Shown here: positions 26,284 through 64,000 of the stretch, piece by piece
Numbering within the stretch: position 1 is the first letter of the stretch
How the letters are laid out: every line of letters starts with the position of its first letter
Assembly (NCBI GenBank): GCA_964356315.1
Contig: CAYHHA010000003.1
Coordinates: 12,010 to 76,009, forward strand
Length of the DNA stretch: 64,000 nucleotides
Source: an uncultured Gammaproteobacteria bacterium
Lineage (GTDB): Bacteria > Patescibacteriota > Microgenomatia > UBA10105 > UBA927
Reading direction: 5' to 3'
Position numbers and translations under genes: made by a program
The notes under the pieces: generated by a model
Seen by the model: only the letters and a program-made list of their open reading frames with translations
Told to the model about the DNA's origin: nothing
Database searches by the model: none

Positions 26284-26521
26284 TCGTTTTTTTTCGGAGG
26301 TTTACGCGGTTACTCGAACACATCTCTTCAAATAATTGTTTTGTTTTTTGGATACCGAGCGTGCGCTCCGTCAACACATAATCATCCCAATCCCCATAAT
26401 TGAGGATATGTTCAAGGATGCTCTTTTCTGATAGCCGGGATGTGTCTGCCAAATACCAGGTCAAATATGGCTTTTTTTGAAGCATTTCACTCAATGTTTC
26501 CATACATGCAGTATACCTCAT
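26243..26521 (-). CDS. Small hypothetical protein (92 aa) translationally coupled to the AbiEii-like gene; putative cognate antitoxin/partner
   Basis: The ORF sits directly upstream of, and overlapping, the nucleotidyltransferase gene. GAGG lies 13 nt before the internal ATG (METLSEM…). No recognisable domain. Confidence 0.4.
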   Translation of the reverse strand: MRYTACMETLSEMLQKKPYLTWYLADTSRLSEKSILEHILNYGDWDDYVLTERTLGIQKTKQLFEEMCSSNRVNLRKKTIAYFSRYYTAYAS

Positions 26522-27900: not shown

Positions 27901-27927
27901 CTGTGCACCACGACCATCCTCTCCTCT

Positions 27928-30900
27928 TTAACAGGGATTAGTCACAGGCACGGTACGATCCTGCCTAAAGAAATCGTATAGATCATACCCAGCAGTAACA
28001 AACGGTCGGATTAAGTAATCTTTTGCAAGCTCTGTGATATCTTCACGTGATGGGAGTGATGCACGGATGCTTTGGATAGATATCGCTGGGACTGTGGCCC
28101 CTGCTTCACCACCAAACACTGCGCTGGCGTTCCTTTCCGCTTCAGAGGTAAACAGAGAATTTGTAAACGACGCGAACCCTGCACCTAAACCATCTTTCTT
28201 ACCTACGGTAAAGGCCTTGATTGCCTCTGCTTTTGCCCGGAACGGCGCACGAAGGAAAAGTACACAGGTATTCCCCACCTCGCCGAATGTCACGGCATAC
28301 ACGCGTCCTACGAGAGGGTTGAAAGAAACACAGTCAGACGCGCGTGCAACAAGACCTTGTTTCGTACTTTTCACCGGACGCATTAGAACGAATCCAAAAT
28401 CATCTACATTTCTAATTGACATTGCTTTTTGCTTTGGCACACCAAACAACATATCAGACCAGCTTTGTGCGCCTGTCTGCGCTCCCACATAAATCGATTG
28501 AATCGTACTTGCTGCATTTTGCAGGGTAGTTGATTTTTTTATAGCTTCACTAACTTGTTTTAACCTATCAGAAACATCTGAAGTACCTTTCTCCACGGCA
28601 TCGGATCCGAAAAAAAACGTATCACCATCTTGTATCGGGTAGCTATTTCCGTACGCAATCATATTTGGCAATAAAAACGATACAGGAGTGGAACCTGTGC
28701 CCGAGTTGTATAAAAACTGATATTTTTGACGCTCTGAGTCGTCTAGAGCAGACCACGCCTTCACAAACAAATCTGTATCTTCCCAAGAGGCTGGGTTCTG
28801 ACGATTGAGAATCCTAGTCACATCTTCGGGAGTCAATGATTTTGTCGTAAAGAGACTTTCGTAGGCTCCGTTGGCATGAATCACATATTGATTCGGATCA
28901 CCTACAACATAGGAGAACATATACTGCATTCCATTTTTCTCGTAAGGAATATGAATAGAAAACACCATGTTTCCAGTGACCAGCATCTCTTTAGAGAGTG
29001 CGTCATCCACTGCTTGCCGTACTTTACTAGAAATAGCATTGCGTCGATCAGAATCACTCTCAAATAATACTGGATTAAAATTGTTCATCGCACTATCAAC
29101 GAGTTTCGCAAATGTAACTGCGCTTGCTTGAATTTCTTGGGCTGACAATTCTCCGATAATAGATGGACTATCCACTACGATTGAATACCGGTCGTTCGTA
29201 ACGGTCACATCTCCCCCACCAACATGGATAGTAGATGTATGAAATGGGATATCCGAAGAATCCGCTAGTCCTTTTCCTATTTTCCCAACCGCTAACGATG
29301 CGCTTTCCACAGGAACTGTACTTGGAACGCTGGATTTCTTCGTAGACAACACTTCTTTGGATGGTGTTGTAGTCACTGCTTGTGGCGCCGTTTCTCTCTG
29401 TAGCTTCCATGCTGAAAACGCAATAGTATTATTCACGCGCACAAGTATGTCTATGGTACGACCATCGGATAATTTAATAGTCGTAGTCTCACTACTACTC
29501 ATTGAGTATTCTTCTAAAACTCTCTTTACGGATAATGCGTCAGCTGCGTTAAGCGAATATTTGGAATCGATAGCATTGAGTATCTTTGATCTTGCGTCTA
29601 CCAAATCAGAATGGGCGATAATTCTTCCCATAAATACACCGCGTTCTGCATTTATATACACCCCATTTTTTGGTGATATCTCAGAATCAAATTGAACAAC
29701 CGGCTCGCCTAACAAATCACCTTGGTTGAAGAGCGCCACCCGTCCTTTCACATCAATTCCTACTATATAAACCGTTTCAGACCCATTAAATTCGACTGTA
29801 TCGCCGACTCGTAGATCTGTACTCCTAATTAAAGTAGATTCACCTAACCTCATCATACCGCCCCCGATATCCGCAGGAGCAGATCGATACTGTTTATGTG
29901 GAAAAGCAATTCCATTTATTTTAACTATCGATATATCACCCTTCACATCAATTTGTACTGCATCAGGCGTTATCACGATTTCTGAGCTCGTATACAATGT
30001 ACGAAGACTTTGTTTCCCATTTTGCAATGCTCCAACCACTACTTCTTTTTGTTCTGGGGTGGAGGATGATGGTTGACTCGCGATACTAGATTTTTTTGAA
30101 CTTGGGGCCATTAAATAGTGCATTGGTGGACTATTTACATCCAAACGTTCCTCGGCGCTCATAACTGCGGCTGCTAACATATATTCACCATCCCCAGGTG
30201 AAACACAGGGGATTCCCCGAATACGTAATGCAGTATTAGAATATATAACAACAGGGATATTTAATGCGTTTCGAATTTTTTCAGGATCATCATGCCCATC
30301 CACAATAACAACATTTGGAGATTCGTTAACATACCTCTTAAATGTCGCTTGAGAATCAGCAATTAAAATATTATCCCTATCAGCCCCGTAATTCAATAAG
30401 TTTCTTCGTATTTCTTCTCGAACATATTCGTTTTGAACTACTACAAGTATCCTATAAGGCTGAAGATTTATTCCTGCTTTCTGTGCATACGACGGGTAAG
30501 TTCCAGTAATTGCCACATCCATTTTTATCGGTATATTGTCTGATTCATTTTGCAGAAAATCAGTACCTTTCAAATACGCTTCTATCTCGCCAGGATTCAA
30601 TGAGCTCGCCCTGCTCCCAAGAGCCGCTCGAAACGCTTCAGCCATCGCTTTTTCTATGCCTGCTCTTCCAAGTTTAGATGGTTTCAATTCCCGTGTCGCG
30701 TTGAAATATGAGGCAATTGCAAGTAAGCGATCTTCTGTTGACACATTTCCTGCAAAAAGGACGCGAAAGATACTCGTTTCAAATTGGTGATACAGCTCTG
30801 CATAGGCCTCTGAAACGATCCCCGGATTCTCTTCGAGATTTGCCGGATCCCCAATAACAGAAAGTGTTGCCTGTTGCCAAACGCTTCCACTCGCAGAGTC

Positions 30901-33900
30901 CACCGCTCCGTTTTGCCGTAATTCATGTGCTCGTCTGGCAATCATAAGCACGATTGCAAGCTTCTCGTTGGCCTCTGGTGTCAGATATGGACTGTATTCC
31001 CTCACGAGATCATGGGATAATTCATGTGCTATCAGATCCCGAATATACGCTCTATTTGGACCATCCGCACCTTCACTTTTTGCCAAAAAGGCCACACTTG
31101 AGCGAATTACGATGACACCTGTTCTTTGATCATATATACCAAGGATCGATTTTAGTCGTTCTTGAATGTCTGTTTCAGTAACAGATTCAGGCCTTGTTCC
31201 TTTTGGCAATTCGTTAATCAACTGCTCTTTCACATTTGCATAGAGGGATTTCTCAAACGCGACATCATCTTTAGAGACAATAGGCACTGTTTTTGCATCT
31301 GCGTTAGCGGTTTTCAACGGCATGCCCATTTCGGTGAATTGATCATTCACACGGGTATATTCTGCATCGAACACATCACGGTGCAACACCTCTTGCTCGA
31401 CTAACCATTTTCGGAGTTGCTTTTCAAGACTTGTCACATCACCAGAGGACAATTGCTTTGGAGAATCGAGTAGCAATTGCTCCACAAATCCGCGAATTGG
31501 ACTTGACTCGAGCTCCCCATAAAGAAGTGATGTCAGAGGAGAAAGATTCACAGACTTATCGCTGTTGTATGCCGTTACTACCCGCGTCAAATCCTTTTTC
31601 GCTTTGGCAAAATCTGTGGTTCGTTCTATTTCATCCTTAACTGATCGCCATGGAGATGTAGCTATGTCAAAATTCGCACGGAATTCCGCGATAACACTGG
31701 CCACTTCCTTCGCCGGTACTATTAACCGATCAAGAAAATTTGGAGAGGATTGGGATGATTGGACAGATTTAGGACTGATCGGATTACTATTGATAATTTC
31801 TTTCGAATAAAACTGTTCGCGAGCCTTGAGAACGGCGTCGATATTCTTGGCCGGAATATTGATAAGATAGAGGTCGCCTGATTTGTCTATGTACACTCGA
31901 AAATACTGCGGGGTCATTATACCGTAATATGCCAAACCTAAAACATCACCTGACTGCAAATCGGTGTTATCTTTAGCTGAATATCTTCTTGTCACTGATG
32001 GTCTTTGTTTTGCATTTTTCCACCACGGTCCGTTTGTGATAACAAAGTTTTTCGTAGTTTTATGAACTCCCACATACACCGAATTTTCTTCATTCAGAGA
32101 AGTTGTTGAAATGTCGCCAGATTCGCCTATTTTTACGAAGTATTTTTTGTATTCGACTGGAGCATCTGCTAGGGTGATATCTGATTTTTGGATCACAAAC
32201 ACACTTTCCGTATATACACTGCGTTTTTCCTTAGATTCTTTCGGATTTATACGGATTGCAGATTGTACATCTGGTTCTTCTGGCCATAGAGACATGTCGA
32301 CATTTACTTCTGAATTCTCTGGTGATGTAGGAGCCTGCCCTTGCATGCTATCATTCCACATGGTGTCGTGATACGCATCTATCCCCGCATTTATCCGCTG
32401 TATTGTATCCTCTGTAGTACCCAGGAATGTCTGCAACGCTGTGATGGTTCTATCATTCACTTTGGATGCAAATATATCGAAGGAGAGAATCGGTTCTGCC
32501 TGTGGAACAATCACAGTAGCGCTCGCTTCATCAGCTTTAAACAGTCGCGAAGCAGTAGATAAAGATATGCTTTCTGTTTGAACGTCATCAATAGATTTTA
32601 TATTTCCTATAGTGTTAGCAAACCTTATCATCTGGAGACCATATATATATAGCTGTGCCTCAGTCTCAAACCGATCAGCATATACCATAGCTGTGCTTGC
32701 GATCTCTGCATATCGTGCGAATTCACTGACAATTGTCGCTACCTCAGTTTTAAACGCTTCTATGATGATTTGTTTGTCTCCTTCAGGTAATGCTTCAAAG
32801 TGCGCAGAAATGGCAGGACGTTCTACCTGTGAAAATAAACCAGTTCCAAACAACCCATCGGTTTTTACTTCGTCCTGCGCATCAATACGTTTTCCTTGCT
32901 TTATCTTAAACTCAGCCATGCGGTAAGCATTCTCTATACGTTTCTTCAATCCCGCTTCATACTGTACTGCGAGATCCTCATAGGTCGTAGATTCGAGCAG
33001 TGTTTCTGCTTCTTCCAATTCCGTCCGCTGTGTCAGGCCTCCCAATGTAACCTTTCTATTATTCTCTGTGAATTCTTTCACTAACATTTTTATTGTTATC
33101 GGAGACGTATTTACTCGCTCTTTTGCTTCATTGGTCAGAGTTTCAAATATTGTTTGCACGTTTTTCATTCTCTTTATAGTTTGTTGGGTAAAAAAGTACG
33201 AATTCAGATCTGCTCCGTACTTTTTAACAAATACATGTATAGCATCGAACATCTCAATTGATTTTGATTTATAATATTTATCCCATCCGTTATCTTCAAA
33301 ATCTGGACCAAGTGAGACCCGATATGTAGAGGTTGTAGTCTTTGCCATTACCAGTAGCAACGAAGTCAACCACTCTTCTGGTGATGTCTTTAAATCACTA
33401 TGGGCATATAACATACTCAGCGTTACCCAGTTATTATTATCAAAGGTCAATGATTCAATAAGCGAAGCGATGACATCAGGATCATTAAATACTAATTTCT
33501 CCTCTTTTGATTTTTTTGCAACCTCTTTTTGTTTCTTTAAGAGATACTGCTTCAGTGTCCCATCTGCAAACTCTATAAATTCAATTTTTGATTTCCACGG
33601 ATAGGCTGATAGTTGCACGGACGGTGTACCAAACAGTTGCAAAAATACCAGTTCACCGATATACGGATTATATGCTGGATCCACAGATTTCCATGATTCT
33701 AGCCATTCGGCAAATACTCCTTCATTCGTTTGTAGAGCTATTTTTTCGAATAAAAATTTATCATATATATCCCCAATTATTGCCCCGTATGAGTTACTAA
33801 AACCTATTTTTTGCAATAATTCCGGTTTTTCCTCCTTGCTCAATGTATTGATATAGAGAGTCATAACCGAATATATATTCTCTACCCCTTGTAGCCGATT

Positions 33901-60900: not shown

Positions 60901-63900
60901 AACAGGTGGTGTTCCTAAGCTTCCATCAATATCTGTGGTTGATCGAGGCGTTTCTCTGGATGTGGCGCCCAAGTCACGCATTTGAATCGGCTCACCTCGG
61001 AACACATCTTGATCAAACAATGCTTTTTTAGTCGCCGTTTCCATAGAACGGATAGAATTAACATATTGATCCAGGCTCTTTACCTCATTAAGTGGCGTAA
61101 ACTTTGCTCCTGGTTCTGGCGAATTAGTAAGCAATTCTTGTCCATAGGATATTCTCTCGCGGCTGACTCGCTCATAATATACTTGTTTCACTTCAGGCGG
61201 GAGTAGTTTGAAGAATTTGTTATTTGAAGGGATGAGTTCAATACCACGTAGAAATGAATGAACTCGATTGATGGTCGCTAGTATATCTGCCGCACCTTTT
61301 GTACTTCCTCCACCGAGGGAATAATTTAAATCCGTCACTTGCCTGGCGTCCGCCATAAGTTGTTCTATGAATATCTTTGTTGTTGCGTATTCGGTTGTAT
61401 TAAATCCAGTGATTAACCGTCGTGCATTCATAGAATCCATAGCCTGATACATGGAGGCCAGTGTATCTCCGATCAAATTATCCGCCACTCGTTTGACTGC
61501 GGAGAGCTGACTGCGGGCAATAAGATCTGTTTCATTTTTATTTAGGAATTCCCGAAGCGTCGTCTGATTGGTGAAGGATGTGCCAATACCCACAATGTCC
61601 AATTCTGAATATCCGTCAAATCGTCCTCGATCACGACCTATTGCTTGGGAGAGCTCTGTCATTGTGGTGTCTTTTCCTGCGATAACCGTAAACTTTTCGC
61701 CAAATTTCGTCACTGAATCAACCCCCTTATGCATGCCGTACTCATAGACAGTGATAACTTTTTTACCTTTATTTGACCCACTGCGATACGTCTCGACTAA
61801 TGCGTCTAGCTCTGCGAGGTCTTTTATTTCCGTTCTCGTGCCATCTTTGGCGATTCTATAATGCTTCAAATTCGCATCGCGTACGATAATGTCCATTTCG
61901 GTGTGCTGTGACCGAATTCGACTTATAAGATCCAAGCTTGATCGTTCACCAGTTGCAATGACGACATGCTGAATATCTCCTCCTTTGATTTGAGTTGCGA
62001 AATCTCCATATGATGCCGATACAACTTTTGATATAGCATGTTGTGATGTGTATGTTTTACCGTCAAATACACCACCAAATATAAATGTATCCTGACTGAT
62101 TCCACCCACACCCATGTCGATGCCATAAATATTTTTAAACTGTTCCGCGACATATTTTGGCGTACCGGTAAAGCCGAATATTTCTGTGAAGTTTTTAAGG
62201 AAGGTGGCATAGTTTGTGGATGTGGCCGATGCAGTGATTGAGATGGCATTTACATCAACCGGCCCAAGCTTCGTGCCATTATGATACGTTGGTACTCCGT
62301 TATATACCTCTGTGCCGATCACTTCGAGGGCCAGTGCATCGTAGCCTTTACTCGGCGTGCGACCGGATATTTGATTTTCCTCGGCAAGCACTATTCGCCC
62401 ATCGCCATTCCTATAATGCACGCCATATTCTTTGGCAATAATATCTACGATTGATTCTGCTGCTGTTTTGCGTTCAAAAAAATCTGTCCGCATTTGTGTA
62501 AGCGCTTCTCTGGCAACTCCTGGGATTTCTGTTTTTTCTAATAATTCACCCAGCTTTGTTTGGTAGTCTTTACCTGTCTTACCCGCAAGCTCACGAGCTA
62601 TATACTCTTGAACCTTTGCTTTTGATGCAGGGTCCGTCATTTTTTCTACTGATTGTTTTAATAATTGTTCATACAATTTGCTTTGCACGCCATCGTCAAC
62701 AATCCTCCCCTGTTCTCCTGTGCGCGCTTCTGTTTTCAGTAGATTTCTTGCGCCATCCAAATCTCCACGTTTTATCAAATCTATAGCGTCTTTAATGAGA
62801 GATTCACCTTTTGTCACTTCATTGAATACCGATATTTGTGTTTTTCCACGTAAAGTTGAGCCTAAATTGGAGCGCTCACCATGGGACATCACATAATCTA
62901 CTTCCAACCGAAGAGATAACTGAGCCTCATCAGCTAGAAGCACTCCACCCTTCATTTTTTCCATGATGGCATACCCCTCTACCCCCTTGATGGATTCGAA
63001 AATGACATCTTTAGTCGTGAGTATAATTCTGGCATCAGCAAGCTCTGATGCTGTGCGTGGGCGCTGACCCTCGAAAATTGCGACCTTTTCGCCAAACACT
63101 TTTGAAAGCACCGCTTCTGCTTCATGAAGTTGCTTTGGGGTCAACTCTGATAGTGACTTCCCTTGTGGCAAATCAACATAATTTTCGATAAACAATCTCA
63201 ACTGTGCTTTATCACTTAAGACCGATGTCACCACTTTCCCTGTAACTTTTGCTTTCATGACAGCGATTTCAGGGATCAGCATAGTTGTTTTCCCGATGCC
63301 TGTGAGTGCTTCAAATAAAATACCCCGTTTCCCAACCTCGACTGTCATAGCTTTTAGAACGACGGAGGCTTGGTTTTTCAGCCCACCCTCAAATCCTCGA
63401 AGCGCGGATATCGACATATCACGCACTGGTACAAGCGTACCTCCTTCACCTGGAGTCAGAGTGATATAGGTTGATTCTCCTGCTTTTGTCGCTTTTTCAA
63501 ATACCACTTTTTGTCCGTTAACTGTGAATTCATATTTCCCGTCCAGTTGGCTTTTGAGAAGTTCTGCGACGTGTTTCCCAACACTTCGATCAGTGGCCGC
63601 TCGAATTGTGGGATCCAACCCGGTAACCGTTTCCGGCGTCGTAGCACCGAGTTTTTTGAACGATAATTCTGTTGGAACGTTTTTCCCTAGTATCGAATCA
63701 ATCTTCGCATCGACACTCACAAAAGAAGATAACTTTCCTTCTTTATGTGTTTCGAGGCGCACTTCATACTCAGCCATTTCCTTGTTCAACGTGTCGATGA
63801 TACGGTCGGATAGTTTGAATTTATTTAGGGATGATCCATCAGAAACATGGAATCGAGTTTCGGTTTTTAACACCCCATCGGCAAGCTGTAAATCTGCCGT

Positions 63901-64000
63901 ACTGCCAACCTGTGTTTTGCTTGCTACATCTAGATACAGGTTGCCTTTTTCATAGAGTATGTTTACTTTTTGCCCATTTATCTCCAGTTGATATCTACCT
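27928..64000 (-). CDS. Giant multidomain protein B (≥12,020 aa; 5' end/N-terminus beyond window end): SF2/SecA-like ATPase, internal TM helices, PP2C-like phosphatase, GNAT, Cys-peptidase-like, zincin-like motif, internal repeats
   Basis: The track ORF 27928..63873 (11,981 aa) is extended to 64000: the codons upstream of the first Met (GTG TTA AAA…) continue in frame with no stop to the window edge (…RYQLEINGQKVNILYEKGNLYLDVASKTQVGSTADLQLADGV-LKTETRF). The stop codon is TAA at 27928–27930. Confidence 0.9.
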   Translation of the reverse strand, partial: GRYQLEINGQKVNILYEKGNLYLDVASKTQVGSTADLQLADGVLKTETRFHVSDGSSLNKFKLSDRIIDTLNKEMAEYEVRLETHKEGKLSSFVSVDAKIDSILGKNVPTELSFKKLGATTPETVTGLDPTIRAATDRSVGKHVAELLKSQLDGKYEFTVNGQKVVFEKATKAGESTYITLTPGEGGTLVPVRDMSISALRGFEGGLKNQASVVLKAMTVEVGKRGILFEALTGIGKTTMLIPEIAVMKAKVTGKVVTSVLSDKAQLRLFIENYVDLPQGKSLSELTPKQLHEAEAVLSKVFGEKVAIFEGQRPRTASELADARIILTTKDVIFESIKGVEGYAIMEKMKGGVLLADEAQLSLRLEVDYVMSHGERSNLGSTLRGKTQISVFNEVTKGESLIKDAIDLIKRGDLDGARNLLKTEARTGEQGRIVDDGVQSKLYEQLLKQSVEKMTDPASKAKVQEYIARELAGKTGKDYQTKLGELLEKTEIPGVAREALTQMRTDFFERKTAAESIVDIIAKEYGVHYRNGDGRIVLAEENQISGRTPSKGYDALALEVIGTEVYNGVPTYHNGTKLGPVDVNAISITASATSTNYATFLKNFTEIFGFTGTPKYVAEQFKNIYGIDMGVGGISQDTFIFGGVFDGKTYTSQHAISKVVSASYGDFATQIKGGDIQHVVIATGERSSLDLISRIRSQHTEMDIIVRDANLKHYRIAKDGTRTEIKDLAELDALVETYRSGSNKGKKVITVYEYGMHKGVDSVTKFGEKFTVIAGKDTTMTELSQAIGRDRGRFDGYSELDIVGIGTSFTNQTTLREFLNKNETDLIARSQLSAVKRVADNLIGDTLASMYQAMDSMNARRLITGFNTTEYATTKIFIEQLMADARQVTDLNYSLGGGSTKGAADILATINRVHSFLRGIELIPSNNKFFKLLPPEVKQVYYERVSRERISYGQELLTNSPEPGAKFTPLNEVKSLDQYVNSIRSMETATKKALFDQDVFRGEPIQMRDLGATSRETPRSTTDIDGSLGTPPVARASHPAIESAKRSATIADGVKATANRVQRVIAITALNLDYLANSRTQATIQKQKMFSIGDEIPVVINGVTTTMKLEARFKINGVPLIGTPIPIPSIDFTVEDLSGQKGAVDKDVAGRLTNITTPNQTPIEKSDSDTAKNDSKTRMNSAVKVYLPIVAAELSSLLVAQGAPGVDVTALAHIAMNYEIIKTAGQDATAAHTALEAEVAKVLATKTITDPTKIQAIVNGITKHIDDEMVRVAPVSVPVIPAVAPILDKNGAPIVIGETITVTPSSFIYGQKQTGKVTAIATDGSSITIDVAGNLITYQAKDIGAGMHNVITKVTVSSFVTKDVLVKTNDLFWMSNTNGLTTGRDPADKIQVLVEQVGGRMVAKVGPASGSETLLINNRPVNVTSTALFELKKDDVVDFDGTRIVLSSNLNARGAQFTVSSITPAQAPAKSNWFTNTVVPALKDVGTWFSAPVSSNISLPRWVAGIIALAVGALVVAGIGAIAGAGGAVATVTATEAVASSEVATKAVWSINKVFAVFGGISLLLGSIGYVMTPSTTSKSPTGYIKYVLSSGVSSDVNASQSNGTKVTQVLQGANRIAGWYMLGGGFRGVAVAVMNESRRYIERMPETGWKQFALVAYETVLPTFGRSIPVGNATVKNVHFIVKTVIFLGTRASAIVSGNWWLPAMDVLRQIDYWANAPARVVTTTKLDAVTWLPSKAKTVLSYLSPFQDPPQWSQLNDLQRGLWIHNPTTPNKFISWVIKLLTATPGANPSYYLTRGVTGGAFLWKQFVPLPLAITEFLGNMALWIFDAIRISFTPGGFWAFISPDAFDQSIAGTSDVSKIPQYKKAVVIAENVGGLADIDVSTNTFVADARAQIVAANSTITDSGLRTQTVNDEMAIVVALAKRLFALRLAMDAVVVANTPAIIQAGITAPTLADPTAIKTILDLLKTATTTGISPTIEVSVLQDRADAFAKDIVAQIKDWETMVAAGGLPVAGLGVETAIVGKLGIVDQRYNALYLAWVKQKAAQINSIGGGTTPVVVIPVNQTLATPGQLNVGDEVQMLVSNTSSGETPSVEKGDVREKVTILPTDTINYGFIHVAQATGRVHVTVEGSETLGRNLSFSHTVPTNITSLGYGVFIHRAGKTYVIPLTEISTARLRAGGGGGGGAKIRTAGYYDLITKITPLNKEAVGLSIPPVLIVDLQEDEDVALIAYTDLKERVAVARDAKQKVSDREIERIALLLVNKNAYDENLTTLGNVETAINTLLGGFTYSTANVKSAEIARATDAIKAKAKDIAEKRSAFHTKVVSERVSLIESLVTGVSQTDILAKSEGILKLTSEFTLLKGVDTSADPKTYIGDELALLKPQLAELNIPPNTAPIVSAGIAVFGAGEAGARTIIETKVRDAVIKPATVDLPIYEAWVGAQTTILTEKARTAFIASSTPEQKAKSDIATLLPLLTSATVNETEVVQAVELIAKLKKLPPKVKDSAALTPGNLSKFEKALQKKIDALYDTAVRDVAGRLVLEPDYIVTTELDGIRNVYAAQRIAIRTIQANIQSLLAEAKQVADYAYSKSVWQHLISFVGSTKATELARAIPELGKNLISSQRAARAFVRLLIAAIDTEVGRTKPNYEKLSALQSVAEYIQSRWTDVHPFASVIKNSQVLISALSRLQAKLATRPAPLDINNVQTWQELVGYINAAKAADVIVSNLVDVLLTRKYGGMKVAEYSALTDAQKLTEIRTILGDHFSSDFQNSSDPVLSDEIADRLKGLNISEADIKSVFAQIKANSAFVKAIDGYLAEILARNEIVTSWPTIEDNVGTRVFVIERRGDGAFVVMPKNNNAIVDGKPLAEDQASDPIVEGTTVVHNGISYFVREYEGTLAVYDPASERMYKLFANGGMEIVDVKPFTGEWKVSLGSDSDQNIKVLDPGFVGKAFNIVRTATGVFTINNMPSRGRVGTFDGQPLSGIPLQNGTVIRLDNQAWTAVISARGDRLDLVEINNKYTLSVELDGTVHVVDNQSEGNITMEQGGPNGVIAAVHVSKPKSKKSGEDAIAVKPASIGSADGVSSKHVSRSPEGARYIADLMEEVKAEAKKLPLNKVQSFLEQQAFEINRKVMDEFGEDGASTYTGAFIHPAGYVFTIRVGDGDIMFGRDGKVYELDEVNTWTQKQNGPDYPSSSAYQDMYAMKSTGTMGLIPNMLGRDAFWGAKITSFAVTEGDTILISSDGLHKYFSKDSTKTESYAEHMVKAGKGSSPLEIERSIFNLIKPIVESRGPKAPDDVSVAVMRVSKLPKSSETVAVPVIQQAPVAPGGKKVIQFIPGTQKSVASTVKAQEILTELRKIFPEYDGLLDGPSYTDSTINNVISVALYELVQMTIANNNLKVDRAIPLEQEISRLIGIAPNGLKEGLRKLQGLLKPLVPTKQNEAKTRVTEALGEVSQILAQPDITLEGFKDASALIGAIVQRDINTAKMQRQVDEANAAFTKLRGEVFASTVTAYATDIAAAWENDPEYDGTIEKAELLKWKEVGVTPRAISLANSKLLDQAQSLYDAAVLEKTNQEIEQLNKQYGTISTVEELQQTVQDLLPRYQELETLLSENPEALALAQKATGALTDLIEETIDPMTLRELYVGLYADPNFETAQVIASYEAILTQLGYTSKEITSYSKDMLANAKDLADMNRAIDALKANTKDQALLDLLSTITADSSVGDARKVIQKYLTLFTRELQRTLRTRTAADELVWFGQIASIIQSEWTGVHPFTSIVKKIVDFNKTVTKLNKKLATVQKNTPQQITIKNGPTLVDKGLVTSDQFTSIFSGVTAYTATYFKRANGVFEATNTPSGGSFNVDRERASIQTKTGGETPLVKIESSELAEPVYLYFAGLDTSGQPQWIQYEVSSTGSSGTNTLTNINPVVETKKSNISSLIDEIKAFKQSIADANPLENWNQADPAYNKTTHVITVRNDSNELVGFLTLHTTDSNGKKAEADRMIVHPDYQGQDIATTMIKKAQELFQEITLQAVPSGLPIAKGTILDEADIDVLVSMYEKFGFALALRSGDMRSGDWHGKSMIWKKQSQPADVTEKEYAKALKDLQSAIESGKAPDVKKAQTALTTLARLSPQQWKTVGLKYAPRVLKITDAITALQSTKRVSMIAFVANEFANAAFPVKGVNQSLKDLRSVLDAARGVAAPTKKVGLVFGDPREDAIRQLVRAAQSGSTAMQSQSTIRSLPSNKQVSDYNGNLEKLFIDEALVIANQSHDPAAVQKAHDRNVQLVAENNLFDQKGTGNVVLHGVPLAQVSDKGEYGVLAADYYGSVGTIPNAVFMSKPGQIFQKDTPIDVINRTKAKEYGVSTAAEKRVTLVMDFDDQTMQQRSAGQVSDSKDFIASIGVPATAVRAIIINDRADLDTAIDAALSFDFYVPIYLSSGTLLFTESEFTDISYGFFQKAAGQVLSFGVDFMSEALQSAEAGIQSNFTYTAEAEIQKIVDGIVGINPKAKVGAQKYAKTQIQNIRHDIAEAKKKEPEYKTVEFTGIPSLAYALHSSGSLFGSSNDAISLINTRYLASGQLPTTVIGPKLLRPSEMKPQMYNGGRNPVLRNCNFSSCVTASLQNAIIILNQNNPEIPLPKNGEAELINKAIEIQFGTTNKPDPNAYSAADPVGFMMQTATHVVEELYGEKIDTLSDRNRGVNSRSIPALMETFRRGGVATFGVPGENHAMLLYGYDGVNKKILGWDQRLNVARDFTLAEFTRMINDDTGFAYMLFFAPVQKDPKVEVEEVLSSAFASNTGITPAKGDFPKIVEKVAKENGTTEGVFNAALAALNDPVVVALLKDALLNLPVDTKKAEQPYWAELIVRAALANDLTPADRVEYIKQVLKGIQLALRDGSILLSSAKQFVDVSALRAYPYGDGRTFNAGISSLLAGVDGLENPTWRVDIRYMGNLTAKELLFTILYMRHNKKIELQSATVEEKRTAFVNFFADPINEADLLLNILREEQGSRNATVGMLDFISGRPNLADDDADSVGVYKKVFEAAKTKANGMDRAMVGALARKREEVETAFLAADDPYTEAVTQLTAVAKAAKFDGKAIPEAVRSFWVAQTTKTFITTLNARLGKAQMDRTILSAIMQSIETEDLDEAWFLSDTPARIEADLKRIETDNTLISLRGRVAPLRAYIANQKMNVVHHVIAMSLSDVEKQGYDGVKQASDTIEKLNKRLNALGVQLTDVHRIGAKTRWTAASLRTELSTQYALGKENGEIARVNEFIQQTLLPAFEGNVPAAVAKLINSAQSTGVKGIAELVKVVVREAEQNTRGAQVDRQTLSFWSQVLYSIQTDLKTQLPVYDVISRTTKLTQSIASLKEKRNKAWAIRLYKDLLQDLEKLGINIPEEYIQANDYVGVIAAAYIRLHQLPAGPSERKSYVIETIRDISAEVAVITGDIQSPTSMLISAMVKDEDRDAENPEALALAQKATGALTDLIEETIDPMTLRELYVGLYADPNFETAQVIASYEAILTQLGYTSKEITSYSKDMLANAKDLADMNRAIDALKANTKDQALLDLLSTITADSSVGDARKVIQKYLTLFTRELQRTLRTRTAADELVWFGQIASIIQSEWTGVHPFTSIVKKITDFNKTVAQLNKKLKAINATGESQSSVAQAVFNELLTALQNANTTTDTVALAAAVKTATALSIASWESAVSTFNAQPQADSFVKQVIDAFGKIRDEANIDAIVMTLKPVIEKWKSLDELRPILYKRLDGHIQKTIRSQNPFADVYKNHSIEISKGNVNEFALMITELKVSIDSLKKSNDLTYINAVLGVSDPFLKVLTEFGFENSANVQELRESFINLKARKTILDVAVAKHSNTPEEIQYAINEIQAGKNRLSTAVFIKQPEYEVVTSEAPLVFSNFAEFKRTMQAWLTKSAGKDLVIAVDLGSRVEYRSVSSLLQFLEDYGVYDVVSGTFHVGDDTVYGLFKYNGMALTETATIEAYYKGAKMYYLTPVPTPPANAQKPVVVVIAAPVVDVDFKTLLSDLTDALKDRDVTRVREAVTALGQIQKVGQVDLKNTKTAIGSLARAIRAVQKAGNVDILKALVSASIIPLGAGNKMVEVRDVLKIVQEDLKTSQVPSSSDLELIVQGMKEEERTAKELLTQKLARSEADFVIITDEMRAQITSILSTYSNLTEAQKNKIARYTIHVLVALDNRINNIGDAIIKVNTEFPGFLAPHEADAISVSLEYILGSKNNSFALKTLTDSDLKEVISAVVAKEALKYDLPIQTKETLIKLLQQENSSYVYDENSVSDPINDIIVFRKEDSDKAHVQGGGALNLARTDTTDQDKALTLFHEKLHLKISALRDASTTESYWMPIDSESQEIVVTALQYLYAKKIGLPTEQIEKSSKYWGGAIGLARVLERLKTSGKFDWTDPIKRSELYKMALSSNFSPVIEAYVEAFGGDKKKIAEYFSSVTDGYFYNSQEILISAQRDMKMLVASQLFPQSSTLGPVIKQSTLDELNAKTKAEVNEFQAFILRKGDDEKIVYVGITTAPPKSDAPASQAQASDSTVKQEVSIGTIPKDGKSYYLWMNNGKMEIRANRLETTDPLVSVEASTTSENLTVGSIGSHRVNNVPVTSTLRPFVFSLNNTNAGSFTIDTITINFKRSANGGFDLFEEKNVAAQSAPAQPNVAGNQEQIVNALKSKLVTDAQKITLVLNLSNADVVQPAIANAALEFLGNYQIRSRDEFSSLVAIRQLWFRDAALNINQNPLYRTFSNQMSSTRITLYQTVNTSLEVFVKEENGFKTFKGTVTGGTIGYNRNNTITQTMPFSGQTVGDYERTGSPTGEVAVGGVNYFRLINPQILTPVLAAYAQKQAEFDASLAKTTEIVPESRVVPQAGVIYRLQQSMFGGTAKSLKMNSTENAHIRVISGNMEISNQYDLDRNPDKREWFINKASSEDVAINGREFTKPQILKAGDEIRFGNTRHDAFTVSFDAEGNLLLTATTVANRTTNTQPSSSASTSTATNAETELETIIATITKEPTLQAQLLAATVGVRDSVAIRQFIQQRANSAGWKPDSTNVTNNIYKKLLDTKKFPPNTDAQMKLLAKSFQAQMFAATADKKKPAAEKVQSQAPLKQAQTKPAVTKSTASTKAPNDDIEKAFTTIGLDPSVREIARSIIVAIQAELSSPDPINKKRRGAYISVNSQSPSRLSLMVSGHIQAIIAGDEWRHITLNITVGAQEEQLLQVLFGDMDAARTMAVAIAPQATKDIRNSFKSPLAGGGGPSNTKTSVRTYLPTQFQAMMDGGDEFSARKRTRIGDLVARSGIGCEVGIHILPVVYAQATSCAPNQALTYALNTLTDAPWYTVVNTTDGAIDWFQTFLKGTRSLGSATPSLSLTGKQQFAFAASSLPTPGEPLNRATYIQLYVLIEGASGMLEVNSKNQSELAAALIDPKNADMIGSFLEAKDVDPVVAKQYLQAMSLMIGFVPAPMWSEDVVTSLYTVVDALRDISTDNGKQLATLFAQFISSGSKDEAKKQWKSTFSTFFTDVLKIPEEIAQADAFLFGNKEHAGLLGILLSNYNEMAMFEGDDFTNPRFIRQRGARGVIAKTLEVAYEAGKTGGDLPPVRNKVGASDTTSVESQLKLFQLNVTNTAKPKKSKDEASTYWTETELEAAMQEQYDAGKREALDIQASAFLKTVVMPLVKGKDKFKAFAQINLTKKSLGDLQAFLTYVEIHVQDRLGKNLQKGELEFMDKMLTGVLNGLKNQAPLVANLSRIQQVTDLSAQVAKLSGRDDKQESFTREVEGIQRVGLSILPADLQSKHYARIIASLYSQTMQRNGGYMSGSADSIAIDALVKSITAILTASNDQESLLVVSLMNDQVLHDLPLTVIENVQKTPDGSIPAETFALWNRQLEVATNPVIEKAQPISEALDKLQQEISRTQPVENVGYADSVQKALGNVKQVFGSDVSAVYAGAMNTDKEGAVLVPTNRIEHAELLRNVEIALRDYGTQIPDTLTKDIAQLFDELVKPEFKPSDFDNSNANIIAFDLVTDEVVQRLKALLEAYGKQYGFAPEFIELTAGTEKFAHTFARLSGYKKFAVHVLVGIIQKGDWNTNSVGTDVRAFRTEIADQSYERVIKPLESLRKELSNADAVMKATRNVLSLLQNRVSEAVGQTGLLELYPAPKAEDATLWNDAVYADRLTTWVQSLLDSLTPTDAGPSVIKLQMEKSLESIQALLDGYKGTKLSDEETMKQMEQKMTSVLSEIKSPVKSTKDTFLDAVRASVASNPNSFLVLLDPSFIRALFENMQDSQGSLHGEFSSLGSSIFAKVPPESTVIAKLEEFAEQVKKSSTIDMAQLSEFDNLMGATVGTYGVTEEQIAVSPGKFLEAVLKSANVNIKNFAGSPLSAFQQTIQTPEGRLAIAGAYVNVWRSMDKQLLDVQKLKGGTAEQVKDAPDSTRNKLTQLMKSANIKFGLGIAYNESLTLEQNASILIAALEKDGQKVDAYKKLFLYTEPPMQRVRNLTVKLLEEVPQTWKESTTEYEALATGFINEFVSSGFPLDKIQSDMAGTGAQVTRLQKAMGELATSFQTGTNTPQEAMQQFSLYMPSLVQLLGSVSMKDLPTVVTELQKAIAAIQKVTSFGEPEPKNADEILTNPAFLKELLAFIAPTGLQTKELNRPILAAHLASLNTSGKNYDLYVFLRPFAEAVFSQIPDKAVQDEKKSAGNTMIDLLLTMEPTITLADASRDSVIKSILPALGLYTSVSQLTDAVEAIQANPEFRMALTGIQSQLNEARESAVSVERLLSVYVQTIFSVGFEKRSELPTVLSALKKSVDDLDGMKTGWVMPKADDKNPESAFVLAQANTTKITKVLAENSLGRNNSAISNVALLRLTNELGRYVYARLQQSKPIEAPRGGNANTKGSSLATAPLFHVDPAFLEVKSITPDVIFDPSTLPFQAQVGEFASTSWESVEFSTIFSDSVSSWLLPPEDIVKAVKRFVGYDPAESMMGQLAGHDDVPGGYRNNLTDYQVETELRAHRPVVISRDGRSILIQSNEDKTDVAYKYFERDSADFPYTSVQFDGVTYHSTIEKTASTMVQIYTELAKTFNIGVSSKESMTVQFEGDKKSETTLSTISLWKAMGSPQVPVFQGKVLITYKDKTVLLVGSQDGQFAVYEVPSEAQISQIERRTLRHIIYRNLPSYLRSVPNVKHMIDALLSGVFPIGAAMDAGFDLARSAEVVSQSAGIAAQFVSDGVAPIDAIPMVNAILRAAIKKDVTGDTAAFFESIRSLMQTSITPEGWYVSADATANGFTTANEARLREIVGALFTSQGISQEPSLVNAFVDAIGIYLWNRIAADAKTGESYGLKIPEMTSSHKEDYLNISEFGNDSILDVTAEYLREDRTLLAKKYDESRKEHGDVDQLQTAVQRQLRTGASTQSLHDVLKISDSVAFDETTIRTIIGDIQTLEADKARANSNENLDRVELNKNIEALAKKLQEQYQTLGIYYVGNDGFKFTFKDKSGHDVVIDITTPTPHELVQLRAFIESDMTLTSQQKVTQLAQLPTVVSYGSMGSIGFMVMNSQKTYDKPIQMKDVGYGVFIITKVPNPYIAYIQQQVFLKKQLALYDDRAKWFTLALENPEYLPIIETLTYGNRARFTYGIEHEESLLEESLVSSLILTAIKDKWGIKKLAIALMAENAVPFIHKNEKQSASSINNTAIYSNLDEIELRLRYFEGKTTINPFANILKLPVDDVGIHQDLQEKVTKLGKKINVAIEGKRYDLRRAGIMGTWVDASDKRWVDDGHHRQTKALEEQIKTGEKIVAYYRDLTPQLLIDQGRGKILEVMEANEKDLCGGKCYDVRGGVKYFTQSAAKKLGGILNFRESRGTKQDLLVFLYTTGIRDPDILSSLEIAQDTSQAEYALKILGLPKGMVKFALNLSDIEGEGHQILAEKLLNLSVTLPPEAADQLWSYIQPFIVQESLKNMGSDINATDDDVQEVSTIQQILDWPFAERGYFGELIQPKALTFIANKLNAWSYFESRYEYLGREEFAKNIQSEWNRLQGVENIYSVMTLYINTLSKEEKPELLQKIGFSNSYGAIIGDIYDKFLFEKIALQTNEGVFAEWLESWKSVDPAYNPYIGELVFLQLFGTPSVQLSAYPWKSKIEFIEFADGTLKQYLLKKQKEVAKKSKEEKLVFNDPDVIASLIESLTFDNNNWVTLSMLYAHSDLKTSPEEWLTSLLLVMAKTTTSTYRVSLGPDFEDNGWDKYYKSKSIEMFDAIHVFVKKYGADLNSYFFTQQTIKRMKNVQTIFETLTNEAKERVNTSPITIKMLVKEFTENNRKVTLGGLTQRTELEEAETLLESTTYEDLAVQYEAGLKKRIENAYRMAEFKIKQGKRIDAQDEVKTDGLFGTGLFSQVERPAISAHFEALPEGDKQIIIEAFKTEVATIVSEFARYAEIASTAMVYADRFETEAQLYIYGLQMIRFANTIGNIKSIDDVQTESISLSTASRLFKADEASATVIVPQAEPILSFDIFASKVNDRTITALQTFLGTTEDTIQRINAGIDAYHDTMWNDSMQGQAPTSPENSEVNVDMSLWPEEPDVQSAIRINPKESKEKRSVYTESVFVIQKSDITLADAPVEYKKYFVKIGESGDISTTSLNEENSVYVGVHKTTKNFVITNGPWWKNAKQRPSVTRRYSAKDNTDLQSGDVLGLAYYGIMTPQYFRVYIDKSGDLYLINIPAKNIDAVLKAREQFYSKEIINSNPISPKSVQSSQSSPNFLDRLIVPAKEVASVIAEFRANFDIATSPWRSVKDEIERTTDFAKAKKDLTRVVTAYNSDKSVNLSPLTSLLYGELESSPIRGFVEQLLLDSPKQLSSGDVTSLEKQLRKWLVEQEVLHRDVFDAEYTRVNDQFTEMGMPLKTANADAKTVPIVSKDDVAFEKSLYANVKEQLINELPKGTRPESVTETDIQERLKSILGIYDQRTGVIVIRSSVAFLAKSEGADGPNRAYIRDLIAHELSHDLVREYSPYLTPEANEKLAIVLMIARRAHELRQNGAVDSASGSVWQQATLSVIGDPANLEENPGIVSEAYAELYHQFETSIFRVLFAGNVSTEDRLLAIASYFNATRELKPSKLGRAGIEKAMAEAFRAALGSRASSLNPGEIEAYLKGTDFLQNESDNIPIKMDVAITGTYPSYAQKAGINLQPYRILVVVQNEYVREEIRRNLLNYGADRDNILIADSQATFKRYVNESPNVVIVDGHDDPEKIRNALNIPVVIYSNTALRIRGIPCVSPGDGEYMLAAAVMSAEERLDVNSPPMHYLMAPSSKKSSIASQPSSSTPEQKEVVVGALQNGKQSLRTLYTSSEIVITPDAVQIDVKGDISIVKINGIAFPHKQYRSAPADIGGGMMRLGESTLIRSTDLRVGDTVEFNGSETVYIVGIDVKGRVALFNQGDLLGEPVVQFDSEISPKNGVYINAERGVFMGRIIAHSDLVDARSKILNAIDSKYSLNAADALSVKRVLEEYSMSSSETTTIKLSDGRTIDILVRVNNTIAFSAWKLQRETAPQAVTTTPSKEVLSTKKSSVPSTVPVESASLAVGKIGKGLADSSDIPFHTSTIHVGGGDVTVTNDRYSIVVDSPSIIGELSAQEIQASAVTFAKLVDSAMNNFNPVLFESDSDRRNAISSKVRQAVDDALSKEMLVTGNMVFSIHIPYEKNGMQYMFSYVVGDPNQYVIHANGAYESLFTTKSLTPEDVTRILNRQNPASWEDTDLFVKAWSALDDSERQKYQFLYNSGTGSTPVSFLLPNMIAYGNSYPIQDGDTFFFGSDAVEKGTSDVSDRLKQVSEAIKKSTTLQNAASTIQSIYVGAQTGAQSWSDMLFGVPKQKAMSIRNVDDFGFVLMRPVKSTKQGLVARASDCVSFNPLVGRVYAVTFGEVGNTCVLFLRAPFRAKAEAIKAFTVGKKDGLGAGFASFTNSLFTSEAERNASAVFGGEAGATVPAISIQSIRASLPSREDITELAKDYLIRPFVTAGYDLYDFFRQDRTVPVTNPC
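30935..31070 (-). other. HEXXH zincin-like motif near C-terminus of giant B (AYIRDLIAHELSHDLVREYSPYLTPEANEKLAIV)
   Basis: HELSH is followed by a Glu-containing helix. It is possibly an ImmA/IrrE- or minimal-zincin-like fold. Confidence 0.3.
47123..47623 (-). repeat. Intragenic direct repeat copy B (aa ~5417–5586)
   Basis: See copy A. The offset between copies is 5,544 bp (1,848 codons, so in frame). Confidence 0.9.
49684..50260 (-). other. Papain-like cysteine peptidase-like segment (C39/C70-like Cys…His arrangement) in giant B
   Basis: …NPVLRNCNFSSCVTASLQNAIIIL… (candidate nucleophile Cys) … GENHAMLLYGYDGVNKKILGWDQ (His followed by an aromatic/Gly-rich strand). Motif-level only. Confidence 0.35.
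51754..52191 (-). other. GNAT-family N-acetyltransferase-like domain in giant B
   Basis: HVITVRNDSNELVGFLTLHTTDSNGKKAEADRMIVHPDYQGQDIATTMIKKAQELF. This is GNAT motif A (V.P.yqG.GiG..L). Confidence 0.5.
52667..53168 (-). repeat. Intragenic direct repeat copy A (~501 bp, 100% identical to 47,123–47,623); encodes ENPEALALAQKATGALTDLIEE…SEWTGVHPFTSIVKKI (aa ~3569–3738)
   Basis: Nucleotide-for-nucleotide identity read directly from the sequence. The track shows identical + strand ORFs at 47345 and 52889. Confidence 0.9.
54088..54771 (-). other. PP2C/PPM-type Ser/Thr phosphatase-like domain in giant B
   Basis: …YTGAFIHPAGYVFTIRVGDGDIMFGRDGKVYELDEVNT… (anvGDSR.yl.r.G…lT.DH), …GDTILISSDGLHKYF… (lll.SDGl.d) and …PDDVSVAVMRV (DDiTvvvv). 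Confidence 0.5.
55900..56420 (-). repeat. Third, diverged copy of the same ~170-aa module in giant B (…SVAEYIQSRWTDVHPFASVIKNSQ…)
   Basis: 'gcaaatggatgaacatcggtccatcgggattgaatatattctgc' at ~55,981 versus 'cttgtaaatggatgaacaccagtccactcagattgaataattgaggc' in copies A and B. Confidence 0.5.
57439..57459 (-). repeat. (GGT/GGA)7 run encoding Gly7 (RAGGGGGGGAKIR) in giant B
   Basis: + strand reads accaccaccaccacctccacc. Confidence 0.8.
59284..59499 (-). other. Two predicted transmembrane helices inside giant B (aa ~1459–1488 WVAGIIALAVGALVVAGIGAIAGAGGAV; ~1508–1530 WSINKVFAVFGGISLLLGSIGYVM)
   Basis: Strongly hydrophobic Ala/Gly/Ile/Leu-rich stretches. The mirror-image + strand ORF 59096..59830 is the Ala/Pro-rich antisense artefact. 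Confidence 0.6.
61590..63320 (-). other. SF2 helicase/translocase-like ATPase (SecA/DEAD-like) region of giant B
   Basis: Walker A EALTGIGKTTML (aa 189–200, nt ~63,283–63,300), motif II LLADEAQ (aa 313–318, nt ~62,925) and helicase-C/arginine-finger ELSQAIGRDRGRFDGYSE (aa ~740–757). This resembles SecA's QLRGRSGRQGDPGSS. Confidence 0.55.

Follow-up and report, generated by a model that had tools for sequence, protein, structure and literature searches.

Introduction

Giant proteins of at least 10,000 amino acids (aa) have been described chiefly from Omnitrophota and also from Actinobacteriota by West-Roberts et al. (2023). These proteins carry transmembrane (TM) regions, a divergent SecA_DEAD domain without scaffold and wing, Ser/Thr phosphatases and other domains of sporadic occurrence (bioRxiv 10.1101/2023.11.21.568195). 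Nielsen and Lui (2026) count 916 Omnitrophota proteins of at least 10 kaa; GNAT is among the commonest domains of a “multi-enzyme” class, and a separate group is defined by a SecA DEAD-like domain (bioRxiv 10.64898/2026.06.07.730766). Patescibacteria are not among the phyla highlighted in the available parts of these two sources. Here, we analyse a stretch of 64,000 nucleotides of contig CAYHHA010000003.1 (the window), which contains most of a minus-strand gene for such a giant. This gene, called gene A, combines an ATPase whose predicted fold is closest to SecA with a long, cysteine-poor tail of scattered enzyme domains, and it most likely comes from a bacterium of the Patescibacteria (the Candidate Phyla Radiation, CPR).

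CPR bacteria live attached to other cells, and little has been learnt about the ways in which they find and use their hosts. Peregrinibacteria show a general tendency towards proteins of at least 5,000 aa. In the literature surveyed, the longest CPR proteins are one of 4,163 aa from Vampirococcus lugosii (PMC8080830) and one of 2,228 aa from Ca. Chazhemtobacterium Ch65 (PMC7143001), and CPR genomes are in the range of 1 Mb, for example 0.8 Mb (PMC7143001). In a green-sulfur-bacterial consortium, giant virulence-factor-like proteins of the epibiont were reportedly moved into the bacterial partner (bioRxiv 10.64898/2026.03.19.712371). An earlier note on the window, made from the sequence alone, had proposed a giant multi-enzyme gene and named a series of motifs in it. 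We followed up these proposals computationally.

Gene A is a single giant gene that extends beyond the window

The minus-strand frame of gene A is open from 27,931 to 63,999, with 12,023 sense codons and not a single stop. It ends in a TAA at 27,928-27,930, and its 5' side runs past the window edge. The two other frames of the same stretch contain 832 and 815 stops (about 7% per codon), so that chance cannot account for an open frame as long as this one. Since TGA, TAA and TAG are all absent from the frame, this result is independent of the genetic code. Base composition revealed that the frame is more than stop-free: G at codon position 1 reaches 32-40% in the gene A frame and 10-24% in the other two, in 24 of 24 blocks of 1.5 kb, and the whole 36 kb is therefore coding-like. 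The earlier note had placed the start of one giant gene outside the window and had pointed to the flanking contig sequence as the place to find it. Indeed, on contig NODE_68 of the ENA assembly ERZ4201063 (123,744 bp), which contains the window in reverse orientation, gene A is called as a protein of 14,806 aa that is complete on the contig. Consequently, the window misses about 2,783 residues (8.3 kb) on the N-terminal side. All residue numbers of gene A given here follow the in-window numbering, which covers 12,023 of the 14,806 residues. When the first 400 in-window residues were used as a protein pattern, neither GTDB genomes nor JGI metagenomes gave a match. We conclude with high confidence that gene A is one genuine giant gene of approximately 44 kb. 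Its features and those of the neighbouring genes are collected in Table 1.

Table 1. Positions of the features of gene A and its neighbourhood in the window. P0001 is the closest relative of gene A.
Feature	Residues	Position	Strand	Evidence
Giant gene A, in-window part (12,023 codons + TAA)		27928..63999	-	open frame, coding signature, contig gene call
Two ~150-aa modules ahead of the ATPase (Y-x-[LF]-x-[IV]-NGQKV)	1-200	63400..63999	-	conserved with P0001
SF2 ATPase module	195-921	61237..63417	-	motifs, homologue alignment, predicted fold
Hydrophobic pair, probable TM hairpin	1,501-1,533 and 1,554-1,572	59284..59499	-	hydropathy
Gly7 run	2,181-2,187	57439..57459	-	sequence
Repeated helical-looking module, copy 1	2,492-2,707	55879..56526	-	Smith-Waterman tiling
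FHA-like segment, just ahead of PP2C	2,931-2,995	55015..55209	-	sub-threshold Pfam
PP2C/PPM phosphatase domain	~3,060-3,304	54088..54822	-	Pfam, motifs
Repeated module, copy 2	3,591-3,812	52564..53229	-	includes 500-nt repeat 52,667-53,166
GNAT acetyltransferase domain	3,961-4,060	51820..52119	-	Pfam
Candidate papain-like cysteine peptidase	~4,590-4,790	49630..50232	-	motif level only
~490-aa region	4,970-5,462	47614..49092	-	conserved with P0001, 25% identity, E 1e-44
Repeated module, copy 3	5,439-5,660	47020..47685	-	includes 500-nt repeat 47,123-47,622
HEKLH motif	6,339	44971..44985	-	motif
Second weak FHA-like segment	6,929-6,967	43099..43215	-	sub-threshold Pfam
Diverged paralogue of the ~490-aa region	7,582-7,913	40261..41256	-	sequence comparison
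HELSH motif, possible zincin site	10,992	31012..31026	-	motif only
AAA_14 + DUF4143 ATPase gene (408 aa), 27 nt past the gene A stop		26674..27900	-	PADLOC PDC-S01, E 1.5e-149
92-aa open reading frame ahead of and overlapping the AbiEii gene		26243..26521	-	open reading frame
AbiEii-type nucleotidyltransferase toxin gene		25645..26283	-	Pfam E 6e-12
Giant gene B, ATG at 24,420		1..24420	-	8,140 codons in window; 11,849 aa by contig gene call

Identical internal repeats leave the frame intact

Two other assemblies cover the 3' part of gene A. Contig NODE_2686 of ERZ4201064 matches the window from 18,747 to 36,511 with one mismatch and no gaps, and the Logan contig ERR3856787_257200 is identical over the part compared, its gene table holding the last 6,407 residues of the gene A protein. 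One end of the Logan contig falls at window position 47,152, exactly 30 nt (k-1, with k = 31) inside the downstream copy of a perfect 500-nt DNA repeat (52,667-53,166 and 47,123-47,622, 100% identical). The repeat is thus a true branch point of the read graph. The other end, at 25,534, lies within a different repeat. The edge of identity between the two 500-nt copies is sharp on the 5' side and decays gradually on the 3' side, a pattern suggestive of a recent gene conversion event between paralogous modules of older origin.

These repeats raise the question of whether the length of gene A is partly an artefact, with the 44-kb frame, or the 5.5 kb between the copies, resulting from a wrong path or a strain chimera. 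Two identical stretches of 500 nt inside a short-read metaSPAdes contig, a Logan contig that stops at the branch point and a single assembly upstream of the downstream copy would all fit such an origin. However, the copies are spaced by 5,544 nt, which equals 1,848 codons, and any alternative path, be it a deletion or additional copies, would therefore keep the frame open. Moreover, the coding signature is uniform along gene A, and the two copies differ in their flanks and have a diverged third counterpart, which makes the module a real paralogous domain. Relatives from four other assemblies also show uninterrupted frames of several thousand residues. We consider an assembly artefact highly unlikely. 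The giant-gene claim is robust to how the repeats are resolved, and the exact length is less certain.

The ATPase module resembles SecA in its predicted fold and helicases in its sequence profile

Close to the start of the in-window protein we identified a superfamily 2 (SF2) ATPase module with the motifs I (TGIGKT, 232-237), II (DEAQ, 357), III (FTGTP, 610) and VI (GRDRG, 788). An exhaustive HMMER search with this module recovered 27 cluster representatives among 1.84 billion proteins. In a family alignment of 14 sequences, G43, K44, Q592, R596 and R598 are invariant, and D164/E165 and T420 are conserved in at least 90%. Using this alignment as input, AlphaFold produced a model with a predicted local distance difference test (pLDDT) score of 78.1 and a predicted template modelling (pTM) score of 0.76. 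Two RecA-like domains with Walker A, DExx, a TGT-type motif III and a motif VI arginine finger can be recognised in the modelled module, and judged by its motifs the ATPase looks catalytically competent.

SecA came first in both independent fold searches with this model. Foldseek returned 1tf5 with an E value of 2e-11, and SecA or SecA2 structures took six of the top eight places. The model furthermore contains an insertion of about 250 aa between motifs II and III, at the position of the SecA preprotein-binding domain, and long helices after RecA2, including one of 50 residues. The term “SecA/DEAD-like SF2 ATPase” that the earlier note had used is therefore borne out by the motifs and by the best predicted-fold match. 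On the strength of the model it appears a fair description, and membership in the SecA family proper is not established.

Sequence comparison points in a different direction. The family profile matched Ski2-like SLH1/Brr2/ASCC3, RIG-I and XPB helicases in the PDB (best E 1.3e-12) and not SecA. Pfam assigns DEAD to 5 and ResIII to 8 of the 14 family members and gives a weak ResIII match alone on gene A itself (E 0.02-0.04); SecA_DEAD (PF07517) exceeded its cut-off in none of the 14 members nor in gene A, and the SecA preprotein-binding domain gave no match. In both fold searches DinG, XPD, Hjm and UvrB rank close behind SecA. The module might hence be a helicase or translocase for nucleic acids, of the Ski2, DinG, XPD or RIG-I type, and the giant protein would in that case act on DNA or RNA, for instance by taking up or processing nucleic acids of the host at the envelope. 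Against this stand the leading position of SecA in both fold searches and the SecA-like location of the large insertion, and Pfam and NCBIfam scans found no nucleic-acid-binding domain across the 12,023 residues. A helicase role seems improbable to us, and we judge the case for a motor that translocates protein, as opposed to a helicase, to be finely balanced.

Gene A belongs to a rare family whose named members are all CPR bacteria

All named relatives of the ATPase module are CPR bacteria, namely Candidatus Gottesmanbacteria, Amesbacteria, Beckwithbacteria, “Patescibacteria group” and one “Parcubacteria group”. Judged from these homologues, gene A most likely stems from a Patescibacteria bacterium of the Microgenomatia type. 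An origin from Omnitrophota, which was first expected from the literature on SecA and giant genes, was rejected on the names of the homologues. Rfam and tRNA scans of the window were empty, and the window contains no marker genes. Among the GTDB species genomes just two contain a relative, a Patescibacteria metagenome-assembled genome (MAG; 45% identity) and a Gottesmanbacteria MAG. The latter relative lies on a contig of 567 kb and is thus chromosomal. A word-index protein search with residues 1-1,200 returned none, even though a relative with 44% identity exists, so that negatives of this method are weak; with the family alignment it returned a single fragment of 923 aa. Very probably gene A belongs to a CPR family of the kind described here, and by its homologues this family looks restricted to CPR bacteria and rare.

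The relatives are giants as well. Their open frames span at least 5,905 aa in one locus (L005, across its entire 17.7 kb) and at least 3,692, 5,725 and 7,401 aa in three JGI loci (L007-L009), all of them cut by contig or locus ends. Most of the longer database representatives are open reading frames of 1.5-8 kaa, the largest having 7,969 aa, and most representatives are likewise cut by contig ends. In the Gottesmanbacteria MAG (L006, 1031-18083) the frame is split into overlapping open reading frames of 3,899 and 1,809 aa. This split is probably a frameshift error in that assembly, and relatives are therefore likely longer than the database entries suggest. Sequences outside the ATPase module are mostly unalignable, and even the closest relative, P0001, shares just three further stretches with gene A.

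Despite this divergence, a layout recurs among the relatives. The proteins whose start is intact open with a K/R-rich stretch and then a hydrophobic helix (residues 9-25), a signal anchor, and several of them carry the motif (K)xQQDIRxRA after this helix, as observed on the N-termini of P0002, P0007 and P0020 and on the loci L005-L009. We know of no described signal with this motif. The N-terminal region of about 0.7-2.3 kaa contains 4-7% Cys in 9 of 14 relatives, the closest ones among them, 1-2.5% in three and 0% in two. About 1,000 residues ahead of the ATPase the Cys content drops abruptly to below 0.5%, and in the closest relatives an Ala/Gly-rich hydrophobic stretch lies 850-950 residues before the ATPase. 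From this membrane stretch through the ATPase Cys remains at 0-0.5%, and in most of the long tails it is below 0.1-0.3% (up to 0.74% in P0001). Gene A fits this pattern with 10 Cys in 12,023 residues (0.08%) compared to 0.74% in the neighbouring gene B (binomial P 3e-29), a gene B value that holds for this comparison and stands beside a figure of 0.2% from a side observation. The ATPase starts at residue 2,991 in the Gottesmanbacteria protein P0002 and at about 2,978 (~2,783 + 195) in gene A. This correspondence suggests that the N-terminus of gene A probably has the same layout as P0002.

The tail carries scattered enzyme domains and a repeated module

The enzyme content of the tail differs between family members. 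Gene A encodes a PP2C phosphatase and a GNAT acetyltransferase, whereas a calcineurin-like phosphoesterase (Metallophos) was found in L005, HD and Macro domains in L009, and a significant FHA domain after the ATPase of P0009. Both gene A enzymes had been named in the earlier note, and both exceed the Pfam gathering scores. PP2C_2 scored 35.3 bits against a cut-off of 24, and four of the four metal-binding Asp motifs are intact (GEDA 3066, ADGV 3080, SDGL 3241, DDVS 3295). The GNAT domain reached 34.8 bits with Acetyltransf_7 (cut-off 27) and 32.9 bits with Acetyltransf_1 (cut-off 20.7); in its motif A, YQGQDIA, the acetyl-CoA loop Q-G-Q-D-I-A is only partly canonical (Q/R-x-x-G-x-G/A). The two FHA-like segments of gene A stayed below the cut-off of 20.7 bits, with 16.5 bits (E 0.012) and 16.1 bits (E 0.015), and their key residues are not conserved. 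An NCBIfam scan yielded a weak sub-threshold PP2C echo and two chance-level pilin matches, and searches of PDB sequences with the whole in-window protein gave no matches.

Two further enzymes that had been proposed for gene A fared less clearly. The papain-like segment contains what look like the Cys and His motifs of such peptidases, with Cys4611 in SSCVTASL and His4722 in NHAMLLYGYDG..GWD. However, Pfam, NCBIfam and PDB sequences returned nothing for it, a homologue search by the word-index method was empty (a weak negative), and the single-sequence AlphaFold model reached a pLDDT of 31.5 and is unusable. The segment is thus a candidate peptidase at the level of motifs. A similar picture emerged for the C-terminal HELSH motif, which had been read as zincin-like. 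Gene A contains two HExxH motifs where 0.064 are expected, and at least two occurred in 0.2% of shuffled sequences, so that the motifs exceed chance; yet HELSH has no family or PDB match, and no third zinc ligand was identified.

Apart from enzymes, the in-window protein contains a pair of hydrophobic segments beginning at residue 1,501 (first placed at about 1,460), which probably form a TM hairpin. In a crude hydropathy scan no other segment among the 12,023 residues is both uncharged and strongly hydrophobic. Shuffled sequences yield more such segments than gene A, and hydrophobic runs are thus otherwise avoided in this protein. The flanks of the hairpin are net positive and its loop of about 20 aa is neutral. 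The predicted Gly7 run was also found (Table 1). Furthermore, Smith-Waterman tiling revealed three copies of a module of about 200 aa, where a threefold repeat of about 170 aa had been noted; a BLASTP self-comparison missed all of them. Copies 2 and 3 are identical over 169 residues and copy 1 is about 23% identical to both. The motif W-T-x-VHPF is common to the three copies and occurs nowhere else in the protein. We detected no RTX or LPXTG motifs, adhesin Pfam domains or adhesin-type repeats in the in-window protein, in agreement with the earlier statement that it resembles no classical adhesin or RTX family.

A membrane-anchored platform is the favoured reading

Our starting point is what was observed above, that is the gene, its domains, its family and the lineage range of its relatives. 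We propose that the gene A protein is a membrane-anchored host-interaction platform of an episymbiotic CPR cell, a reading for which we see roughly equal grounds for belief and doubt. The “multi-effector” protein of the earlier note is a reasonable idea in this respect and is retained here in conditional terms. With the layout of the relatives, an N-terminal signal anchor would be followed by a Cys-rich ectodomain outside the cell, which could contact the partner through disulfide-rich surfaces. An Ala/Gly-rich membrane segment would follow about 900 aa before the ATPase, and gene A would add the TM hairpin. The ATPase and the chain downstream of it would begin in the cytoplasm because ATP is needed, and the positive flanks of the hairpin also fit this side.

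Being located in cis beside the membrane segments, a SecA-like motor could drive the translocation of a polypeptide, and its most economical cargo would be the protein's own Cys-free tail. This tail would comprise more than 10,000 aa, nearly free of Cys and mostly unannotatable, with sporadic cofactor-dependent enzymes that differ between relatives. Exported proteins of monoderm bacteria and many translocated effectors avoid cysteine. PP2C, GNAT and ATPase domains use ATP, acetyl-CoA or phosphoprotein substrates and should work in a cytoplasm, and the domains found in the relatives likewise depend on cytoplasmic cofactors or substrates. The enzyme modules may hence target phospho- and acetyl-signalling in a cytoplasm, perhaps once the candidate peptidases have released them. 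That the tail is exported or delivered we suggest only tentatively, as something rather less than probable. Topology, export step, target and processing are what we infer.

Several points weigh against the platform and the events attached to it. Export, delivery and processing are inferred steps, and the window contains no secretion genes. The number of membrane passes is ambiguous in the long hydrophobic stretches rich in Ala and Gly, the N-terminal 2,783 residues lie outside the window, and the hairpin, at +1,309 from the ATPase start in gene A, recurs only in L008 (+1,338). Pfam domains above cut-off make up 2.9% of the in-window protein, or 8.9% when the ATPase module is included. The organism is assigned through homologues only. 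Upstream of residue ~5,617 gene A is backed by one assembly, and how the 5.5 kb between the 500-nt copies are ordered, and in how many copies they occur, depends on this one short-read metaSPAdes assembly.

Alternatively, the protein might stay at home. It would then be tethered to the membrane with its tail in the cytoplasm of the producer, where it would serve as a regulatory or organising platform through FHA/PP2C Ser/Thr signalling and GNAT acetylation, and the ATPase would remodel partners without any export. By the established positive-inside rule, positive hairpin flanks and a neutral loop fit a topology with both ends in the cytoplasm, where the cofactors or substrates required by the ATPase, PP2C and GNAT are found as well. 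FHA and PP2C form a classic pair in bacterial intracellular signalling, and the FHA domain of P0009 is significant. On the contrary, the roughly 10-fold depletion of Cys, which is common to the tails of the relatives, is unusual for resident cytoplasmic proteins, and gene B shows a normal 0.74% in the same comparison. An enzyme set that changes between relatives also looks more like a conflict or effector repertoire than like housekeeping. A stay-at-home scaffold therefore appears possible but unlikely to us.

A bolder version of the favoured platform is a self-delivering polyprotein, whose motor would thread its own Cys-free tail, over 10,000 aa long, across the membrane and possibly on into the host. 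Internal papain-like and zincin peptidases would then free PP2C, GNAT and other modules to rewire the host. If true, a single gene would combine secretion system and effectors, in a form specific to CPR bacteria, in which classical effector-injection machines are missing. We regard it as a speculative and distinctly unlikely scenario.

Even more doubtful is a mostly extracellular surface fibre or adhesin for host attachment, similar to the giant membrane proteins of Vampirococcus or to classical adhesins. Exclusion of cysteine is typical of exported monoderm proteins and large CPR surface proteins have been reported that are thought to mediate host contact (PMC8080830; PMC7143001), but the protein shows neither Ig-like or cadherin nor RTX or LPXTG features and hardly any internal repetition, and outside a cell the ATPase, GNAT and PP2C would be left without ATP, acetyl-CoA and substrates. 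Finally, gene A might encode a polyvalent protein that a phage, plasmid or another mobile element delivers together with its DNA. The combination of a helicase-like ATPase, peptidase-like motifs and modifying enzymes recalls such proteins, and a defence islet (PDC-S01, AbiEii) adjoins gene A, yet this reading is hardly credible given that tblastn with the first 3,000 residues gave 0 matches in 50,697 phage and 72,556 plasmid records, that the first 10,000 residues had no PHROG matches and that the 567-kb contig of the Gottesmanbacteria relative is chromosome-sized for CPR.

A small defence islet and a second giant gene lie downstream of gene A

Downstream of gene A, a PDC-S01 candidate and an AbiEii-type toxin gene form a small defence islet between gene A and a second giant gene, gene B (Table 1). 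Exact copies of the 408-aa AAA_14/DUF4143 protein occur on four contigs, which come from two ENA assemblies and two Logan runs. The 92-aa open reading frame may encode the AbiEii antitoxin. Upstream of gene B lie 1.2 kb of repeat-rich non-coding DNA (24,420-25,604) that match no Rfam family. Three tandem units of 51-72 nt at 24,420-24,614 are located directly upstream of and reach into the ATG of gene B. A 97-nt direct repeat (24,935-25,031 and 25,508-25,604, 92% identity) consists of short units resembling TAAATCCTAAATC, and the Logan contig ends inside its second copy.

The N-terminus of gene B is hydrophobic (MVPGSLGLLAGFLFSFAFAL). Pfam domains in gene B comprise Peptidase_M48, an ABC1 kinase-like domain and Methyltransf_25/31, and its in-window part does not contain the SF2 module of the gene A family. 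Gene B is poor in Cys at 0.2%, as counted in this side observation. It shares a region of about 380 aa with the tail of the family member P0020. Internal DNA repeats were found at 7052-7301/17864-18113 (76% identity) and at 5576-5690/8873-8987 (73%), and their divergence points to old internal domain duplications. Together, genes A and B span 80 kb. The GC skew of the plus strand is negative in nearly all 2-kb blocks, tracking the minus-strand coding of both giant genes; it is positive in the intergenic region and defence islet at 24-26 kb, and two blocks in gene A are close to zero. A strong G/C strand disparity has been reported in some Microgenomates genomes (PMC7143001), and the skew of the window is much milder.

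Comparison with known systems

Gene A shares many features with the giants of Omnitrophota and Actinobacteriota, as far as these are described in the available parts of the two preprints. The view that the combination resembles nothing known was therefore too strong, since those giants also join a divergent SecA-like ATPase to TM segments, Ser/Thr phosphatases and GNATs (bioRxiv 10.1101/2023.11.21.568195; 10.64898/2026.06.07.730766). Like them, the gene A protein exceeds 10,000 aa and comes from an ultra-small, presumably host-dependent bacterium; its internal SecA-like ATPase lies beside TM segments and is without the SecA C-terminal domains. Recognisable domains are sparse in both, the kinds of enzymes correspond (Ser/Thr phosphatase, GNAT, methyltransferase, peptidases), and both diverge fast into families that are mostly singletons. 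On the other hand, the named relatives of gene A are all Patescibacteria, and gene A has no Pfam SecA_DEAD or SecA_PP_bind match. Where the Omnitrophota and Actinobacteriota giants are described with “numerous” TM segments, gene A has two in 12,023 residues. Carbohydrate-active and dockerin content is absent from gene A, and type II secretion genes are absent from the window. A partition into a Cys-rich N-terminal region and a Cys-free remainder, as seen in the gene A family, is not mentioned for Omnitrophota giants in the available parts of these sources.

Like SecA itself, the module is a DEAD motor of two RecA domains in which motifs I, II, III and VI are present, motifs II and III are separated by a large insertion, and RecA2 is followed by a long helix. 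It differs in sequence (11-17% identity, below the SecA_DEAD threshold), and its insertion is predicted to be mostly helical and is likened to the preprotein-binding domain by position. A wing domain and a C-terminal zinc tail were not detected in gene A. Unlike SecA, the module is embedded about 3,000 residues into a protein of 14,806 aa.

A further comparison concerns toxins and mobile elements. MARTX-type toxins and the polyvalent proteins of phages and conjugative elements carry, as does gene A, several unrelated cofactor-dependent enzymes, possible internal peptidases and variable modules on one chain. However, gene A has neither RTX repeats nor recognisable MARTX effector or CPD domains. 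In contrast to both groups it is 3-7 times longer and brings its own ATPase and membrane anchors, and it shows no link to phages or plasmids. The giants of Vampirococcus and Ch65 resemble gene A in their CPR lineage, their predicted membrane or surface location and their presumed role in host contact, but they are 3-7 times shorter and contain adhesion-type WD40, PKD, integrin and fibronectin domains, where gene A has an ATPase and signalling or modifying enzymes instead. The green-sulfur consortium offers a precedent from an unrelated organism, which we set beside gene A by its description.

The compact and well-modelled ATPase, the intact PP2C and GNAT domains and the sharp Cys boundary, which predicts a topology, offer testable handles on this family. 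In a genome of about 1 Mb, two neighbouring genes of 44 kb and 36 kb would account for several percent of the sequence and hence must matter to the organism. Giant genes of this kind were already known, whereas the CPR family, its size within a CPR genome, the few TM segments and the Cys partition are not described in the literature surveyed. Taken together, the gene A family suggests that a giant-gene strategy with a SecA-like motor also exists, in a sequence-unrelated form, in a second radiation of ultra-small bacteria, which points to convergence linked to the episymbiotic lifestyle.

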